A program made the position numbers and the translations under genes. The notes under the pieces were generated by a model. It had not been told where the DNA came from. It saw only the letters and a program-made list of their open reading frames with translations, and ran no database searches. This document shows positions 50,708 through 57,390 of a stretch of 64,000 nt of DNA, one piece after another. The stretch is from an uncultured delta proteobacterium (GTDB taxonomy: Bacteria; Myxococcota_A; Polyangia; Fen-1088), in assembly GCA_963737265.1 (NCBI GenBank), contig CAVTRY010000014.1, positions 256,001-320,000 on the forward strand, in the 5' to 3' direction. The first letter of the stretch is position 1. Every line of letters starts with the position of its first letter.

Positions 50708-50767
50708 TGGCGTCAGTCCCGTCGCTCGAACACCCTGACGCCAGCAACGTTCCCGATCGGCCGATAG
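50708..50767. repeat. 60-bp imperfect direct repeat copy 1 (duplicate of the GT-C gene 3' end)
   Basis: 57/60 identical to 55802-55861; encodes YRPIGNVAGVRVFERRD*. Confidence 0.92.
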
Positions 50768-50977
50768 GCGTGGATTGTGTTGGCCACGCGGATGCCCACG
50801 CAGCGTCCGGGCGGTAGGTCGACCCGAAATACGATGTCGGCTGACATGACAGAGAATGCGTGACTGACGTGAGTTGCGAGCGACTGGATTCGAGGGTATC
50901 TCGAGACCGCCCGCCGCGCGGGCTTCGCCCCGCAGCCCAAGGCTTCAGGCTTCAGGCTCCGGGCTCCAGGCCTCAGG

Positions 50978-51680
50978 GCCTCCCCGTCCGAGGGTGCTTT
51001 TTCAGCCTCCCTGTCCGAGGGTACTTTTCGGCCTGGTGCTTTTTCGAGGGTACTTTTCGGCCTCCCTGTCCGAGGGTACTTTTTGGGCCTCCCTGTCTGA
51101 AATCCTGAAATCCCGTCCGAGGGTACTTTTTCTCGGAAATCCCGTCCGCGGAAATCCCGTCCGAGGGTACTGAAATCCAAGCTGGCCTAGCTGGCCTCTG
51201 GCCTAGCTGAAATCCCGTCCGAGGGTACTTTTTCTCGGAAATCCCGTCCGCGGAAATCCCGTCCGAGGGTACTGAAATCCAAGCTGGCCTAGCTGGCCTC
51301 TGGCCTAGCTGGCCTTAGCTGGCCGGCCTCCCTGTCCGAGGGTACTCCTGGCCTCCTCTGGCCTCCTCTGGCCTTCTGGCCTCCCTGTCCGAGGGTACTT
51401 TTGGAAATCCCGTCCGAGGGTACTTTTGGAAATCCCGTCCGAGGGTACTTTTTGAAGCTCGCAGGAAATCCCGTCCGAGGGTACTTTTTCGTCGGAAATC
51501 CCGTCCGAGGGTACTTTTTCTCGGAAATCCCGTCCGCGGAAATCCCATGCATGACCCTCCCTCGCCAGGTCGCAGCAGGAAATTCGGAAATCCCGAAATC
51601 CCGTCCGAGGGTACTTTTTCTCGGAAATCCCGTCGGAAATCCCGTCCCGTCGGAAATCCCGTCCGAGGGTACTTTCCCTC
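50978..51680. repeat. Mosaic array of about 15 same-orientation CCCGTCCGAGGGTACTTT (REP-like) units
   Basis: Core GTCCGAGGGT at about 50986, 51013, 51068, 51115, 51159, 51217, 51261, 51334, 51387, 51412, 51437, 51473, 51503, 51603, 51661; intervening sequence built from GGAAATCCC, GGCCT and CTGGCCTAG pieces. Confidence 0.95.
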
Positions 51681-51714
51681 GCAACTTTCTGCTGCCGTTT
51701 CCGAGAACCCATGC

Positions 51715-52665
51715 ATGACCCTCCCTCGCCAGGTCGTGCCCGGCCGTGACTACATGATTACCCGCCGCTGTTCCGAGCGGCGCTTCTTCCTGCGCCCGGA
51801 TGAAGACACCAACAATGCCTTCATCTACTGCCTGGCCTTGGCCGCCAGGCGGGCCAAGGTGGAGGTCACCTTCTCGGTGGCTCTCTCGAACCACCACCAC
51901 ACCGGCATCCACGACCCCGATGGCAACTTCCCCGTCTTCATCGAACATTTTCACGGCCTACTCGCTCGCTGCCAAAACGCCTATCTTGGCCGCTACGAAG
52001 GCTTCTGGTCATCGGAGCCGACCTCCGTCGTTCATCTGGTCGAGCCCAACGACATCCTCGACAAGATGACCTACGCTTTCACCAATCCGACCGCCGCGGA
52101 TCTGGTCGACACCGTCGAGGAATGGCCTGGCGTCGCCACGTTCCAGGCCACCATTTCGGGCGGCCAACTCACCGCGACGCGGCCGAAGCATTTCTTTCGC
52201 GACGACGGCGACTTGCCCGAAATCGCCAGCCTACCCATCGCGCGGCCACGGGGCTATCAGCACCTCGATCAGCGCGAATGGGCCAGCCTCGTTACCGAAA
52301 GCGTTCGCGCCGAGGAAGCAGACCATCGCCAACGGCGGGTCGCCAAGGGCATCACCGTGCTCGGACGGGACCGAATCCTAGAGCGGAATCCTTTTCACTG
52401 TCCACAGAGCCATGCACCACGATTTCAGATGAGCCCGCGCGTGGCCGCGAAGAACAAGTGGGCGCGTATTGAGGCGCTCCTGCGCAACCGAGGCTTCATT
52501 GAGAAATACCGGGATGCCTTCCTGGGTCACATGGCTGGTTTGGCGAACATCGTATTTCCCTTCGGCACCTACTGGATGCGCAAGTTCGGCAAGGTCGCCT
52601 GCGATGCCGCCGAAGCTGTCGAGCAAGCGATCCTCCGCCCGCCCTTTGGTCCTGTCGCCGTGTAG
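51715..52665 (+). CDS. HUH/Y1 tyrosine transposase (RAYT/IS200-like)
   Basis: MTLPRQVVPG..YMITRRC..R.F.L, SNHHH (HUH), FW, Y..TNP.AA.LV...W; the upstream in-frame extension is repeat-derived. Confidence 0.82.
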   Translation: MTLPRQVVPGRDYMITRRCSERRFFLRPDEDTNNAFIYCLALAARRAKVEVTFSVALSNHHHTGIHDPDGNFPVFIEHFHGLLARCQNAYLGRYEGFWSSEPTSVVHLVEPNDILDKMTYAFTNPTAADLVDTVEEWPGVATFQATISGGQLTATRPKHFFRDDGDLPEIASLPIARPRGYQHLDQREWASLVTESVRAEEADHRQRRVAKGITVLGRDRILERNPFHCPQSHAPRFQMSPRVAAKNKWARIEALLRNRGFIEKYRDAFLGHMAGLANIVFPFGTYWMRKFGKVACDAAEAVEQAILRPPFGPVAV

Positions 52666-52784
52666 CTGGCGCCTTCCATCAATTGAAGATCGCGGTCCGC
52701 CCCCAAGTCCCGTCCGGGGGTACTTTAACCCCAAGAATCCCCATAAAATCCTAAAATCCCCTAAAATCCTAAAAATCCCCATCG

Positions 52785-53777
52785 TTTGTTTGGCTGCGGC
52801 CGGATCAAACGCCTACTTGCTCGGCGGCGCTTTTCTCAATCGTGGTCTTTCCATGGTGACGCCAGATGCTCCAGCAGCGCTGAGGCCAATCATCGCGGAG
52901 GGACCCTGCCGGAGGCAATCGGAGCAGTGAAGCGAGGCAAGAGCGGGATGATAAAGCCCACCACCAGTTTGCAAGAACTTCGAGCGAAGATAGGCCAACG
53001 GGCGAAGTCTGCCCCTGCGCATCGCTTTTGGGGATTGCACGTCCACATCATGAAGCTCGATACGCTCGAAGCGGCGTACTTGGAGGCCAAGCGCAATGGC
53101 GGAGCCCCTGGGTCCGACGATGAGACGTTCGAGGCGATTGAGGCGCAGGGCTGAGGAGAGTTTCTCGCGAAACTCGCCGAGGAACTGCACTTCACGGACG
53201 CGTACCACCCAAGGCCGTATCGTCGGAGAGAGATTCCCAAGGAGGGCGGCAAAGTCCGCGCGATTTCGATTTCTGCGATTCGAGACCGCGTGGTGCAAGG
53301 CGCCCTCCGGCTTATCGTGGAACCAATCTTCGAAGCCGACTTCTCGGACAGTTCGTATGGGGCGAGGCCGGACGAAGCGCGCACGAGGCAATCGAGAAAG
53401 TGCGAGTGGGACTAAACCAGGGACGACACCGCGTGGTCGACGTCGATCTGTCCCGCTACTTCGACACGATTCGGCATGACCGGATTTTGGTGAAGGTGGC
53501 AGGGCGGGTGGTCGATGGCGATGTGCTGGCCATGGTGAAACAGTTTCTCAAGAGCACCGGCGACCGAGGCGTGCCACAAGGCTCGCCGCTGAACGGACCC
53601 ATAACCCCGATGGAAGACGCCTTCGCGGTGAGCCGTGATGCGGGAAATCCGCCTTCCGGTTCGATGTGGCGGGGGCCGGAGACGGAGTGATGGAACCCCT
53701 AAACGGGCACGAAGCCGGAAACGGCGGACACAGCCAAGGGGCGTCCTGTACACCACCGCGCCGGTCCCCGACCCGAC
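52785..53777 (+). mobile_element. Degenerate group II intron, 5' half (RT0-RT4 joined directly to DV/DVI)
   Basis: RT from 52948: RFWGL, GAPGSD, in-frame TGA at 53152, IPK..GKVR, RDRVVQ, SYG.RP, DLSRYFDTI, GVPQGSPL. Then GAGCCGTGATGCGGGAAA...CGGTTCGATG (DV), ending CCCGAC. 5' boundary uncertain. Confidence 0.85.
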
Positions 53778-54265
53778 TCCACACCGATTGACGGCCTGCT
53801 TTATCGCGCGACCGAACCGTACTTACGAAGTTCGCACCTTTGGCGAGGGAGGCGTGTGGAAGATCGAAGTTGTCGACCAGACGACCACCTATGATGTCAA
53901 GTCGCCGTGCAAGACCGCCGCGCGATCAAAGGAACCGGCCCAACCGGACCAGCCTCTCACCGATCCGTTCGACTAGCCTCGATGGTTACGCCAAGCACCT
54001 TCCGGCTACACGTACACATCAGCATGGCGCCGGAAAGGCCGGCTCTACGATGGCCTGAATGGACGGCTCGGCAGTGGCGAGCAGCATGGCGATGAAGAAC
54101 ATCAAGGCCGCAAGCTAGCACCGAAGTCTTCTTGCCCGGCGCCCTGTTTCTCAAAGGCTGAAGCACAGACTGGCACCCAGCCTGATGGTTTGCTACGACG
54201 CCACGAACCGCCCTCATCCCGCCCAGCCACACTTCGGAGGGAGCGATCCGCGCGATGGCAAAGAC

Positions 54266-54281
54266 GTACCATTTATGGTAC
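54266..54281. promoter_or_regulatory. Palindromic operator of the yefM-yoeB module
   Basis: GTACCAT-TT-ATGGTAC about 20 bp before the antitoxin start. Confidence 0.6.
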
Positions 54282-54301
54282 AAGTACCTGAGGAGCATTT
54301 C

Positions 54302-54544
54302 ATGACGTCACTCAGCGCAAGCCAAGCTCGAGCCAACCTGTTCAAGCTGATGGAACAGACCGCCGATTCGCACGAACCCATCCAAATCAATGGGCGCCAT
54401 CGCAGCTCCGTGCTGGTTAGTGAAGAGGACTGGCGTGCCGTGCAGGAGACCTTGTACCTGCTGTCAATTCCAGGCATGCGCGAATCCATTCGCAAAGGTC
54501 TCGCCACGCCTTTTTCCAAAACCAGCAAGACGCTTCGATGGTGA
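54302..54544 (+). CDS. yefM: Phd/YefM family antitoxin
   Basis: SASQARANLFKL...HEPIQI...VLVSEEDW...ETLYLLSIPGM. Confidence 0.92.
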   Translation: MTSLSASQARANLFKLMEQTADSHEPIQINGRHRSSVLVSEEDWRAVQETLYLLSIPGMRESIRKGLATPFSKTSKTLRW

Positions 54545-54804
54545 GCTGGTCGCTGGTTTTCGTGAAGCAGGCACAAAAGGACGCCAAGAAACTCGCCGCT
54601 GCCGGTTTTCGGCCGAAGGCGGAATCTCTGCTAGCCCTGCTGGCAAAAGATCCCTTTCAGAATCCACCGCCCTTTGAAAAGCTCGTCGGCGATTTGGATG
54701 GAGCCTATTCCCGCCGAATCAACATTCAGCACCGCATGGTCTATCAAGTGCTCAAGCGCGAACGAGTCGTAAAGGTTCTGCGGCTTTGGACACACTACGA
54801 ATAG
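54541..54804 (+). CDS. yoeB: Txe/YoeB family toxin
   Basis: PPFEKLVGDL.GAYSRRINIQHR.VY...WTHYE. Confidence 0.94.
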   Translation: MSWSLVFVKQAQKDAKKLAAAGFRPKAESLLALLAKDPFQNPPPFEKLVGDLDGAYSRRINIQHRMVYQVLKRERVVKVLRLWTHYE

Positions 54805-54850
54805 TTTGTCGTTCCATCATGTGCTCCAGGCTGGAGCTACAATCCTCGGC

Positions 54851-55150
54851 ATGGACAGGTCGATTCAGGAAAAACGCGGGGAAATTCCTCGCATTCTGGG
54901 CGCTCATGGCGCGCGGAACCCTCGCATCATCGGATCGGTCGCGCGCGGTCAGGGCCAGCCGACGAGCGATATCGACGTCCTCGTCGACACGGAGCCTGGC
55001 CGGGCACTGCTTGATTTGGTCGGTCTAGAACAGGAATTGGCGGAAGGCTTGGGCCGTCGCTTCGATGTGCTGACCAACGAAGGCATCAGCCCCTACCTGC
55101 GCGATCGTATTCTTGCCGAGGCCATACCTCTGGGAAGGACGACCGCGTGA
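54851..55150 (+). CDS. Minimal nucleotidyltransferase (MNT antitoxin)
   Basis: GSVARG...SDIDVLV...ISPYLRDRILAEA. Confidence 0.88.
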   Translation: MDRSIQEKRGEIPRILGAHGARNPRIIGSVARGQGQPTSDIDVLVDTEPGRALLDLVGLEQELAEGLGRRFDVLTNEGISPYLRDRILAEAIPLGRTTA

Positions 55151-55164
55151 ACCTCGAACTGGTG

Positions 55165-55790
55165 TGGACAACCGTTTGGTCACGATAACGGAGCCAGGGG
55201 CCAGCTTTGCGTTTCTGGGATTCGAGTTCCGTTGGGAACGGAGTTCGAAGACTGGAACATGGTATTCGAGCAGAACCCCGCGACCGAAGAAGATCATTGC
55301 TGTCCTAAAGGAAGTCGGAAACATCCTGCGCCGGAGCCGCCATCTGCCTATGCCAGTGGCGGTTGCGCAGGTGAATTCCGTCCTGCGGGGTTGGGTGAAC
55401 TACTTTCGTGTCGGCAACTCGGGGACGGCGTTCGGCAAAATCAAGTACGAGGTCGAACGCAAGGTGAGGCGACTGGCGGCCAAGAAGTGCAAGCGCGAGG
55501 GATTCGGCTGGAAGCGGTGGAGTAGCGCCGTGGTGTACGGAACGTGCGGCCTCTTTCGAGACTACCGCGTGGTGTACTGGAGCGCGAAAGCATGCCCTGG
55601 CTGAACGGACCCATAACCCCGATGGAAGAAGCCTTCGCGGTGAGCCGTGATGCGGGAAATCCGCCTGTCCGGTTCGATGTGGCGGGGGCCGGAGACGGAG
55701 TGATGGAACCCCTAAACGGGCACGAAGCCGGAAACGGCGGACACAGCCAAGGGGCATCCTGCACACCACCGCGCCGGTCCCCGACCCGAC
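55165..55790 (+). mobile_element. Degenerate group II intron, 3' half (RT7 + maturase X + DV/DVI)
   Basis: FAFLGFEF, VNSVLRGWVNYFR, GFGWKRWS; about 195 bp RNA 3' end near-identical to 53588-53783. Confidence 0.87.
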
Positions 55791-55801
55791 TCCACAAGGT
55801 A

Positions 55802-55861
55802 TGGCGTCAGTCTCGTCGCTCGAACACCCTGACGCCAGCAATGTACCCGATCGGCCGATAG
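55802..55861. repeat. 60-bp direct repeat copy 2 (native 3' end of the GT-C gene)
   Basis: Matches 50708-50767. Confidence 0.92.
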
Positions 55862-57390
55862 TCGCGATCCAAGATGGACAGCAGGCGCGGAAAGCGTTCT
55901 GGGGGAAACTTGCCGTAGTGTCCGATGTCGCCGGGGGACGCATCCACAATCAGCCGCGGCCGGCGCTGCGCGAGATCTGCCTCCAGCATGTCCCAGCTTT
56001 CCGGAACGACGTTGGCGCTGGCATCTGCCTTGGGATCGGACTGCGTGCTGGTGGTGGGCGAGAGGCCGGTCAAATAGTTGGCGAAGGCGAATCGACTTCC
56101 GAGAGGCCGGGTCGCCTCGAAGTAGAGCACGGGCGAATTGCCCCACACGAAGAGCCCGTCGGCGGGGTCACTGTGGGTGTGGATGAAGTCCGCCATCGCC
56201 GCATAGTCGGGCTCCGGCTGGCCGACGGCCGCCACGACACGATCGTATCCGATCCCAATTGCAAAAAATAGGGCGGCGGGCACGGCCAGGGCGGCCACCA
56301 TCAGCTTGCGCCGCGATCCCCACAAATCGGCGGCGCGCGCGGCGGCGAGCACGGCCAGCGGCGCGGTCACTTGATGAAAGTAGTGGCCGAAGAATCGCCC
56401 GCCAGCGGACACCGCCAAGGCGCTGACGAGCAGCCACCCCACGGCGAAGTGGTCGAACGCCAGCTGCGAGTCATTGAGCCGGGGCCGGCTGCGCAGCGTG
56501 CGCAGCGCGGCGCCAAGGCCCAGCACCCACAGGAAGAGTGCCCCGCCCACCACGAAGGAAATTCGCGGCACCGCCCGCGCCACCACCTCGGCCCGGCTCA
56601 TCCCTTCGCGAATGTAGGCGAAGTTGAAGCGGAACCAAAACCATCCCGCGTGCCACGAATCGAAATGCGACAGGACGGCCCAGCCGAGCCCGAGGACAGC
56701 GGCGGCTCCCGCCCCGAGCGCGAGCCAGACGGCCAAGATGCGCCGCGGACGCAGCCGATGCAGCCACGCGGAATGCAGGCCATAAAGCGCGAGGTGAATG
56801 CCGCCCTGGTACTTGTAGAACATCGCCATGCCCACGAGCGCCCCCGCTCCGACCAGCAGCGACGGGCGCACGCGGCCCGCTTCCAGAAGACGGCTGGTTC
56901 CTAGAAGGTAGACCGCCACCGAGCCTGCGAGCGGCAACATCATGAACAGCTCGCAGTTGGCGGCGAGTGAATCAAAGGGCAGGAGGGTGGTGGTGAAAAC
57001 GACGTACAGCAAGGCCGCGAAGAACGGGGCGCGCGGCGAGCTTCCAGACGGCCCGAAGCGCCGCACGATGAAGGCCAACAAAAAGGCGGTGGCCAATACC
57101 ACCAAGGTGGTGAGGAGGTGGATGACTCGCATGCCGCCGACGGGCCCCCCGACGGCCTGCGTGGCGGCATATGTCACGTAGATAAGGGGAGGCTTGTGGT
57201 CGACGACGTCGCGGTAGAGGATTCGCCCCGACAACATCTCGCGGCCGACCACGCAATAGGTCGCCTCGTCGTCCGAGAGACACGGGCGCACCAGCGACAC
57301 CGCGTGCAGGCCGAGACAAAGCACCAAGAGACAGAGCGCGTGGCGAGGCGCCAGGCGAGGTCTCTGCGCGGCCGGCGCGTCTCCTTTCAC
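55807..57390 (-). CDS. GT-C (ArnT/GT39-like) membrane glycosyltransferase
   Basis: SDDEATY...YRDVVDHKPP, many TM helices, FFGHYF; the GTG start overlaps the upstream stop. Confidence 0.8.
   Translation of the reverse strand: MKGDAPAAQRPRLAPRHALCLLVLCLGLHAVSLVRPCLSDDEATYCVVGREMLSGRILYRDVVDHKPPLIYVTYAATQAVGGPVGGMRVIHLLTTLVVLATAFLLAFIVRRFGPSGSSPRAPFFAALLYVVFTTTLLPFDSLAANCELFMMLPLAGSVAVYLLGTSRLLEAGRVRPSLLVGAGALVGMAMFYKYQGGIHLALYGLHSAWLHRLRPRRILAVWLALGAGAAAVLGLGWAVLSHFDSWHAGWFWFRFNFAYIREGMSRAEVVARAVPRISFVVGGALFLWVLGLGAALRTLRSRPRLNDSQLAFDHFAVGWLLVSALAVSAGGRFFGHYFHQVTAPLAVLAAARAADLWGSRRKLMVAALAVPAALFFAIGIGYDRVVAAVGQPEPDYAAMADFIHTHSDPADGLFVWGNSPVLYFEATRPLGSRFAFANYLTGLSPTTSTQSDPKADASANVVPESWDMLEADLAQRRPRLIVDASPGDIGHYGKFPPERFPRLLSILDRDYRPIGYIAGVRVFERRD

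Follow-up and report, generated by a model that had tools for sequence, protein, structure and literature searches.

A truncated copy of an IS-like Y1 transposon family of Myxococcota and the directional motif arrays at its ends

The 64,000-nucleotide stretch analyzed here (positions 256,001 to 320,000 of contig CAVTRY010000014.1, assembly GCA_963737265.1, from an uncultured delta proteobacterium of the Polyangia; hereafter the window) contains an intact gene for a Y1 HUH protein of 316 amino acids, which is preceded on the same strand by a dense array of short repeats (Table 1). A longer open reading frame (ORF) starting at 51547 is an in-frame run through this array. With at most one mismatch, the motif GTCCGAGGGTAC was found 16 times in the window, always on the plus strand and never on the minus strand, as compared to a chance level of 0.19 on average and 2 at most in 100 shuffles. 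Fourteen copies are exact (51013 to 51672), and those with one mismatch are at 50986 and 52712 (GTCCGGGGGTAC). The dense array, from 50978 to 51680, comprises the 14 exact copies and 1 copy with one mismatch, so that the approximately 15 upstream copies and the single downstream variant counted in a preliminary description of this locus were confirmed. We consider the locus to be a truncated copy of a Y1 transposon that resembles REPtrons and TIRtrons, both of which are Y1 genes flanked by repeats, and its end arrays to be by-products of the enzyme's own cutting and joining; we assign this reading a probability of roughly 60%.

The commonest unit of the array is (G)GAAATCCCGTCCGAGGGTACTTT(T), and a second unit type is GGCCTCCCTGTCCGAGGGTAC. 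Tandem Repeats Finder (TRF) detected overlapping periods of 8 to 30 nt, simple tandem repeats in the window (15 nt × 2 and 17 nt × 2.2), and, downstream of the gene, a stutter with a period of 19 nt × 2.5 at 52736 to 52782. The same program identified a 102-bp duplication inside the array (2.0 copies, 100% identical), which points to a recent local duplication. In a greedy parse, exact pieces of at least 7 nt from the last unit and the gene start tiled 446 of the 675 array bases, and the bases outside these pieces consisted of short words repeated several times over (CTGGCCTAG and CTGGCCTCCT, for example); the array also contains a copy of the first codons of the gene (Table 1). The linkers had thus been described correctly as shuffled fragments of neighboring sequence. 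The preliminary description had furthermore compared each unit to a GTAC tag followed by a short hairpin. A tag-like GTAC/GTAG is present in the repeat unit, but the 25-nt unit folded no better than shuffled sequences, with energies of -1.3 and -1.0 kcal/mol and z-scores of +0.9 and +1.1 on the two strands, and 170 and 180 of 200 shuffles, respectively, folding as well. A CRISPR-like array was rejected on account of the linkers, which measure 2 to 46 nt and are self-derived.

Two regions next to or within the array were recorded separately. At about 51300 to 51335, the linker TAGCTGGCC(GGCC)TCCCTG is similar to the sequence around the stop codon, TAGCTGGCCTCCCTG, of a copy in the related genome G001 (L013/L040/L049), where this region is duplicated 161 nt downstream; the genome of the window (G000) contains no exact 15-mer of it. 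The linker may have been left behind where two copies were once joined head to tail. Directly to the left of the array, at 50916 to 50960, there is a separate GC-rich repeat of about 45 nt, of which dozens of copies were present in the same-genus genomes G003, G004, and G010 and several in G000.

Table 1. Features of the array and the gene in the window (position 1 is the first nucleotide of the window)
Feature	Positions	Strand	Composition or basis
Left stuttered array	50978..51652	+	13 exact and 1 variant GTCCGAGGGTAC, truncated units, short words
Perfect tandem duplication, 102 bp	51105..51311	+	TRF
Embedded copy of the gene start, 26 nt, ATGCATGACCCTCCCTCGCCAGGTCG	51547..51572	+	Greedy parse
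Last full motif unit and left end of the element	51653..51714	+	Homology with sister copies starts approximately here
Y1 HUH transposase-like gene, 316 aa and stop	51715..52665	+	ORF, conserved residues, fold match
Right-end stump	52666..52706	+	Sister homology ends about 40 nt past the stop codon
Left-end-type unit AAGTCCCGTCCGGGGGTACTTT, direct orientation	52707..52726	+	Motif variant at 52712-52723, joined to the stump
A/T-richer stutter with AATCCCC / TAAAATCC words like the outer part of the unit	52727..52782	+	TRF

Two kinds of Y1 HUH enzymes are well studied, namely, the transposases of the IS200/IS605 insertion sequences (IS) and the domesticated RAYTs, which spread repetitive extragenic palindromic (REP) sequences. 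The window protein contains N59-H60-H61-H62 (NHxH; 51889 to 51900) and, at a distance of 58 residues from the HUH motif, the candidate catalytic residue Tyr120 (52072 to 52074). The residues N59, H60, H62, D67, Y120, N124, W137, P138, G139, R156, and P157 were invariant in 29 diverse relatives, and Y120 and N124 form a Y-x-x-x-N motif that aligned with the Y-helix of Escherichia coli TnpA-REP (4er8) in the profile alignment. Searches of Pfam returned no match for the window protein at E ≤ 1, Y1_Tnp (PF01797) included; 16 of the 29 relatives matched Y1_Tnp, with a best E value of 3.7e-9. The NCBIfam model REP_Tyr_transpos (NF047646) covered residues 5 to 138 (E 8e-8) with 32.3 bits, which is below its cut-off of 80. 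When a profile of the 29 members was used, the best match was 4er8 (E 1.5e-3), followed by TnpA of ISDra2 (E 0.011). The AlphaFold2 model (pLDDT 93) gave the same order in Foldseek, with 4er8_A as the best match (E 1.3e-7) and ISDra2 and IS608 TnpA next, and 4er8_A was also the best match in VIA-align (Z 15.3, rmsd 2.5, 155 of 165 residues aligned). Conserved residues and predicted fold identify the protein as a Y1 HUH single-strand DNA nuclease/transposase with a core of the TnpA-REP (RAYT) fold, in agreement with the intact RAYT-like gene proposed earlier.

Residues ~140 to 300 constitute a family-specific C-terminal part of about 150 amino acids. Modeled alone (pLDDT 85, pTM 0.44), this part had no fold match above Z 3.6 in a wide VIA-align search, and no C-terminal helix-turn-helix (HTH) domain (Bac_DnaA_C, HTH_23, or HTH_28) was detected by Pfam in the 29 members at E ≤ 0.1. 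The family is large. A word-indexed search retrieved at least 2,151 homologues at E ≤ 0.001 among 8,000 candidates scored, the best of which were mostly 316 amino acids long and carried the JGI names RayT or putative transposase. An exhaustive search of 50%-identity clusters resulted in 3,605 representatives at E ≤ 0.001 and 585 at E ≤ 1e-30.

In G000, a tblastn search revealed three intact copies of the gene: the window copy (100%), C11:684840 (94% at the amino acid level), and C11:693766 (92%). Two copies are damaged: the one on C18 has a frameshift, and the one on C16 (60%) is interrupted by an insertion. Of 10 further fragments, 8 start at residues 1 to 9. Among the 41 related genomes compared, 22 contained gene matches, in a patchy distribution; a single genome had as many as 18, and N-terminal fragments were again numerous. 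In G000, this comparison counted 14 matches, the three intact copies included. The hosts of the relatives are metagenome-assembled genomes (MAGs) of Myxococcota, namely, Polyangia, Nannocystales, Kofleriaceae, and Enhygromyxa. In G010, two copies are 99.6% identical over 1,180 bp and have unrelated flanks. The conserved 1.2-kb unit contains no tnpB, and no conserved partner genes were found beside the Y1 gene, its neighbors in the window being unrelated island cargo. By these comparisons, the locus represents a single copy of an IS-like element that is present in multiple copies in soil myxobacteria (Myxococcota). The claim that this is a sequence-generating system "rather than a plain IS" was thus not borne out, since the gene is multicopy and patchy in the manner of an IS.

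Some copies in G000 are themselves part of larger arrangements. At C11:692500-695300, a nest consists of two 5' fragments (residues 1 to 182 and 1 to 71), an intact copy, and a third fragment (residues 9 to 47), all of which point the same way and are preceded by motif units of their own; 3' remainders are absent. Another observation concerns a 2.5-kb element inserted in three Y1 copies, at C11 ~682050-684550 (L106), C18 ~156750-159250, and C16 ~268500-271000. These inserts are 99.8% identical and interrupt either the left end or the first codons of the gene; in two of the three cases, the insertion follows the same left-end TTTCTGCTG. A group II intron was considered for this insert and rejected, as it encodes an IstA-like protein with an rve/Mu-transposase C-terminal domain and IstB (E 4e-56) and belongs to the IS21 family.

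The motif CCGAGGGTAC occurs 88 times in G000, as compared to 13 times for the reversed control. The matches cluster in single-orientation arrays beside gene copies, gene fragments, or gene-less derivatives; for the sister motif CCGAGGGTAG, 41 copies were counted. Relatives have their own versions upstream of the conserved left end (GGGTAC, GGGTAG, GGTTGA, or CAGGGTTG), and the conserved motif core, CCGAGG(G/T)T.., co-varies with the protein lineage. Downstream of the gene, relatives carry the same motif in inverted orientation, often as a stuttered array. Arrays in an orientation set by the element were found at both gene ends in relatives down to about 37% identity, with different motifs. This is illustrated by the sister copies C11a and C18, in which 6 and 7 inverted units CGCGAACGACCCTCGGACCGGAACC, respectively, start ~196 to 198 nt past the stop codon and are mixed with reiterated right-end pieces. 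When the 5' and 3' flanks were compared, the motif core was the longest inverted match in 15 of 32 loci, whereas the motif was the longest direct match in none of them. The length of the inverted match did not exceed that in mononucleotide shuffles (maximum of at least 11 in 30 of 32 loci), so that only its identity with the motif carries weight. Gene-less derivatives resembling miniature inverted-repeat elements or REPINs were present on C13, C23, C16, and C11 and consist of a motif, a spacer of ~80 nt with a palindrome, and an inverted motif. Alignment of the copies establishes the predicted layout of the normal element: motif units pointing inward, a left end of ~50 nt, the gene, a right end of 40 to 220 nt, and inverted motif units. 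The link between nuclease and motif proposed in the preliminary description is therefore real, as co-varying arrays adjoin the gene in other genomes and the genome-wide motif matches cluster around gene copies and derivatives, but a stand-alone unidirectional system is not supported.

Two boxes were found between the array and the gene. The box GCAAC lies at 51681 to 51685, 34 nt before the start codon of the window gene, and was located 33 to 35 nt before the start in 25 of 46 loci, versus 3 for the reversed control (25-to-70-nt zone). A TCCGAG-like box (TCCGAGAAC / TTCCGAGAAC) directly precedes the ATG (51699 to 51707) and echoes the motif core. These boxes may represent a promoter or a second binding site. 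A left-end hairpin, CGAGGG/CCCTCG (6-bp stem, z -2.0), was rejected as a family feature because the left ends of relatives, inspected by eye, lack the complement.

The absence of inverted units from the window can be traced to its right side. Homology between the window copy and its sisters extends from the last unit (~51652) to ~40 nt past the stop codon (~52704 to 52706), whereas C11a and C18 share ~180 nt more, into their inverted motif arrays. At the break in the window, there is a direct left-end-type unit, AAGTCCCGTCCGGGGGTACTTT, followed by A/T-richer stutter. A similar junction was observed in C11b, where a unit start has been joined to the right end at a cut 150 nt past the stop codon. 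Judged against its sisters, the window copy is 3' truncated, its right end having been lost ~40 nt past the stop codon through a unit-start junction, and for this reason only direct motif copies remain. In accordance, the variant at 52712 is a unit start joined to the truncated right end and not a right end itself. That all copies are direct, as stated in the preliminary description, is thus true of the window but is not the design of the system, given the inverted units of C11a, C18, and 15 of 32 loci. The window copy is probably no longer mobile as a unit.

The window copy is located in a composite island of ~5.1 kb (~50771 to 55864), which G010 and G001 lack in their orthologous interval. 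The island is bracketed by a direct duplication of 63 nt (94% identical; 50708 to 50770 and 55802 to 55864) that corresponds to the 3' end of the downstream minus-strand gene. Apart from the array and the Y1 gene, it contains broken reverse-transcriptase pieces (RVT_1 E 4.6e-4, below the Pfam cut-off), a Phd/YefM-YoeB pair, and a nucleotidyltransferase.

The two G010 copies with 99.6% identity have the same unit, and their arrays differ in length and order, indicating that arrays grow in place; the local growth of stuttered mosaics suggested earlier is thus supported. Partial units in 10 arrays kept the outer start in 57 of 89 cases and the inner end in 24, in a count for which the master unit was chosen by us and inherited duplicates were counted separately. 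In the same loci, the fraction of repeated 9-mers was 0.00 to 0.15 in coding DNA versus up to 0.66 upstream. Gene 5' fragments of up to 182 codons form part of the arrays, and two right ends, those of the window copy and C11b, have been cut and joined to a unit start.

Some of these features could have arisen by ordinary minisatellite-type growth, that is, by replication slippage or microhomology-mediated template switching in which the nuclease takes no part and the gene merely carries or lands in repeat-prone sequence. Simple tandem junctions agree with this explanation (15 nt × 2, 17 nt × 2.2, the 102-bp duplication, and AGGGTACT..GCGCA × 2 in two copies of G002), and so do the microsatellite-like short words. 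However, slippage accounts for some tandem duplications but not for the family-wide, two-ended, and orientation-bound pattern, which persists down to ~37% identity with differing motifs, nor for gene fragments of up to 182 codons; the asymmetry of the partial units and the contrast in 9-mer repetition between coding and upstream DNA also speak against it. As a general explanation, we consider slippage unlikely.

We instead infer that the arrays result from the chemistry of the enzyme at its own ends. According to the part of the TnpA-REP study available to us (PMC8266576), TnpA-REP cuts single-stranded DNA near REPs, forming a 5'-phosphotyrosine link, and the 3'-OH of an unrelated oligonucleotide can join the cut 5' end. 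A fixed unit start with a variable left side is the trace expected of such cut-and-join chemistry. The Y1 enzyme would cut at a fixed site, stay bound to the 5' end, and pass this end to a 3'-OH, and repeated orientation-specific joining of the unit start to variable nearby 3' ends would generate the arrays. In one possible route, the element would insert into itself head to tail in a nested manner, and deletions would then occur between the copies; in the other, single-stranded DNA at the replication fork would be cleaved and its strands transferred locally. Either route would leave truncated units, fragments of the gene 5' end, and growing arrays.

In a bolder version of this chemistry, the enzyme would read a hairpin-less motif of ~20 nt, cut at its outer edge, and repeatedly join the held 5' end to a nearby 3'-OH supplied by nascent strands or other cuts in the array, so that a directional patchwork would grow at both ends independently of complete transposition. 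We regard this version as speculative and rather unlikely.

The preliminary description proposed a sequence-generating HUH system, in which repeated nicking at the motif writes a growing patchwork; understood as a dedicated system, this patchwork would serve a function (as a record, regulator, or decoy) and be more than the scars of an IS. The in-place growth of different arrays in near-identical copies is in line with this proposal, the fixed-start/variable-end junctions fit strand transfer to arbitrary 3' ends, and the window gene has remained intact despite the loss of its right end. Nevertheless, the gene is multicopy, is broken in many of its copies, and behaves like a selfish element; the arrays consist of self-derived pieces without unique spacers, and their content is not conserved between copies or species; conserved adjoining partner genes are likewise missing, with only unrelated island cargo nearby. 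A dedicated system therefore appears improbable to us. What had been presented as a separate undescribed system looks instead like a family-wide scar on an IS-like relative of REPtrons and TIRtrons, and as to whether sequence writing is a function or a by-product, we favor a by-product.

A further possibility is that the arrays are misassembled repeats of a multicopy element in a MAG. The assembly consists of 25 contigs with an estimated contamination of 7.6%, the element is indeed multicopy, and short-read contigs break in the array. Yet comparable arrays were present at more than 10 loci of the same assembly and in MAGs that stem, by their record titles, from other projects and assemblers, and X1 Logan contigs reproduce parts of 51144 to 51587; loose ends of Logan contigs and one odd joint resemble other element copies. 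An artifact is thus very improbable.

Several observations weigh against the interpretation of the locus as a truncated transposon with enzyme-made end arrays. The unit has no stable hairpin, and, to our knowledge, every characterized Y1 transposase recognizes one. Slippage suffices for some duplications that are simple tandem repeats, such as AGGGTACT..GCGCA × 2 in G002. No complete tandem or nested intermediate that retains a 3' remainder was seen among the copies, and the nested-insertion route consequently needs frequent deletion. Every copy lies inside an array, so that termini and cleavage site cannot be fixed by sequence, and the orthologous intervals in G002, G010, and G001 provided no clean pre-insertion site or readable target. 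None of the Logan contigs from four soil-metagenome runs spans the array. The manner in which the partial units were counted, as specified above, adds to these points.

Among known systems, the E. coli TnpA-REP/REPtron (4er8) is the best profile and fold match of the window protein. Both share the HUH and Y-x-x-x-N-P signature of class 2 TnpA-Y1 (PMC6006769 Table 1; this and the following comparisons refer to those parts of the cited papers available to us), and each gene has short cognate repeats on its flanks, further copies of which are found at other genomic sites, some of them in inverted pairs separated by a spacer. Inverted flanking repeats, a REPtron feature, were found in the sister copies and at 15 of 32 loci of relatives; the right end of the window copy is missing. 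Mosaic clusters as such are not new, since tandem reiteration of REP clusters together with parts of the adjacent DNA was reported by Di Nocera et al. (PMC3733652). However, the myxobacterial protein has about twice the length and a C-terminal part without a match, and it scores 32 bits against the NF047646 cut-off of 80. Its repeat is not palindromic, and its arrays run head to tail in one orientation instead of alternating. In addition, the myxobacterial gene is multicopy with recent copies, whereas RAYTs are typically present in a single copy per genome and vertically inherited (Bertels et al. 2017, PMC5581495).

TIRtrons (TIRYT; Di Nocera et al. 2013), in which a Y1 gene is flanked by non-REP terminal inverted repeats (TIRs) that in some cases make up small families of repeats, arranged as dimers or clusters (PMC3733652), correspond to TnpA-Y1 subclass 2.1 of Quentin et al. 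2018. The myxobacterial family is similarly bounded by inverted terminal motifs, of which the window copy keeps the left end only. In contrast, the TIR consensus GGGGWSAS (PMC3733652) is not the myxobacterial motif, and subclass 2.1 proteins have a C-terminal HTH and a median length of 238 amino acids (PMC6006769), whereas no such domain was detected in the 29 members here. In the TIRtron descriptions available to us, we found no stuttered arrays or reiteration of gene fragments.

The transposases of IS200/IS605 (TnpA of IS608 and ISDra2) share the catalytic fold, the multicopy IS-like behavior, and the orientation-specific joining expected of single-strand transposition. Distant relatives have a motif that ends in TTGAT, the target of ISDra2. 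The differences are a Y-x-x-x-N instead of a Y-x-x-x-Q motif and 316 amino acids as compared to core-only proteins of ~150 (PMC6006769 Table 1). Furthermore, no subterminal hairpins were found in the myxobacterial family, its ends are inverted and not co-oriented, and its 1.2-kb unit lacks tnpB.

Quentin et al. sorted TnpA-Y1 into 12 subclasses, of which the RAYT subclasses have REP hairpins and low copy numbers (PMC6006769). Subclass 2.3 is similar to the myxobacterial family in being long (median of 325 amino acids), in its NHYH motif, in having several copies per genome, and in the absence of REP hairpins (PMC6006769). It differs in a 55-amino-acid insertion between beta3 and alphaC, which is absent from the myxobacterial protein, and in its reported hosts, the gammaproteobacterial Chromatiales and Alteromonadales as opposed to Myxococcota (PMC6006769), a separation that is by description only. 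Compared with the subclass descriptions available to us, the myxobacterial family shares the class 2 Y-x-x-x-NP motif but fits no described TnpA-Y1 subclass. In the full-text literature accessible to us, no description of this family or of stuttered terminal arrays was found, although the supplements of the classification papers may list members.

Taken together, these data describe a large (585 50%-identity clusters at E ≤ 1e-30), active-looking, and multicopy family that combines the RAYT fold with a non-palindromic end motif and directional end scars. Should the more speculative version apply, in which the arrays grow without complete transposition, the enzyme would be a natural single-stranded DNA "writer", and its transposition chemistry would be new among Y1 elements bounded by TIRs. 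Provided that the enzyme produces the scars, they would constitute an in vivo map of its cut-and-join preferences, and the family would offer a tractable model of how Y1 enzymes make repeats proliferate.

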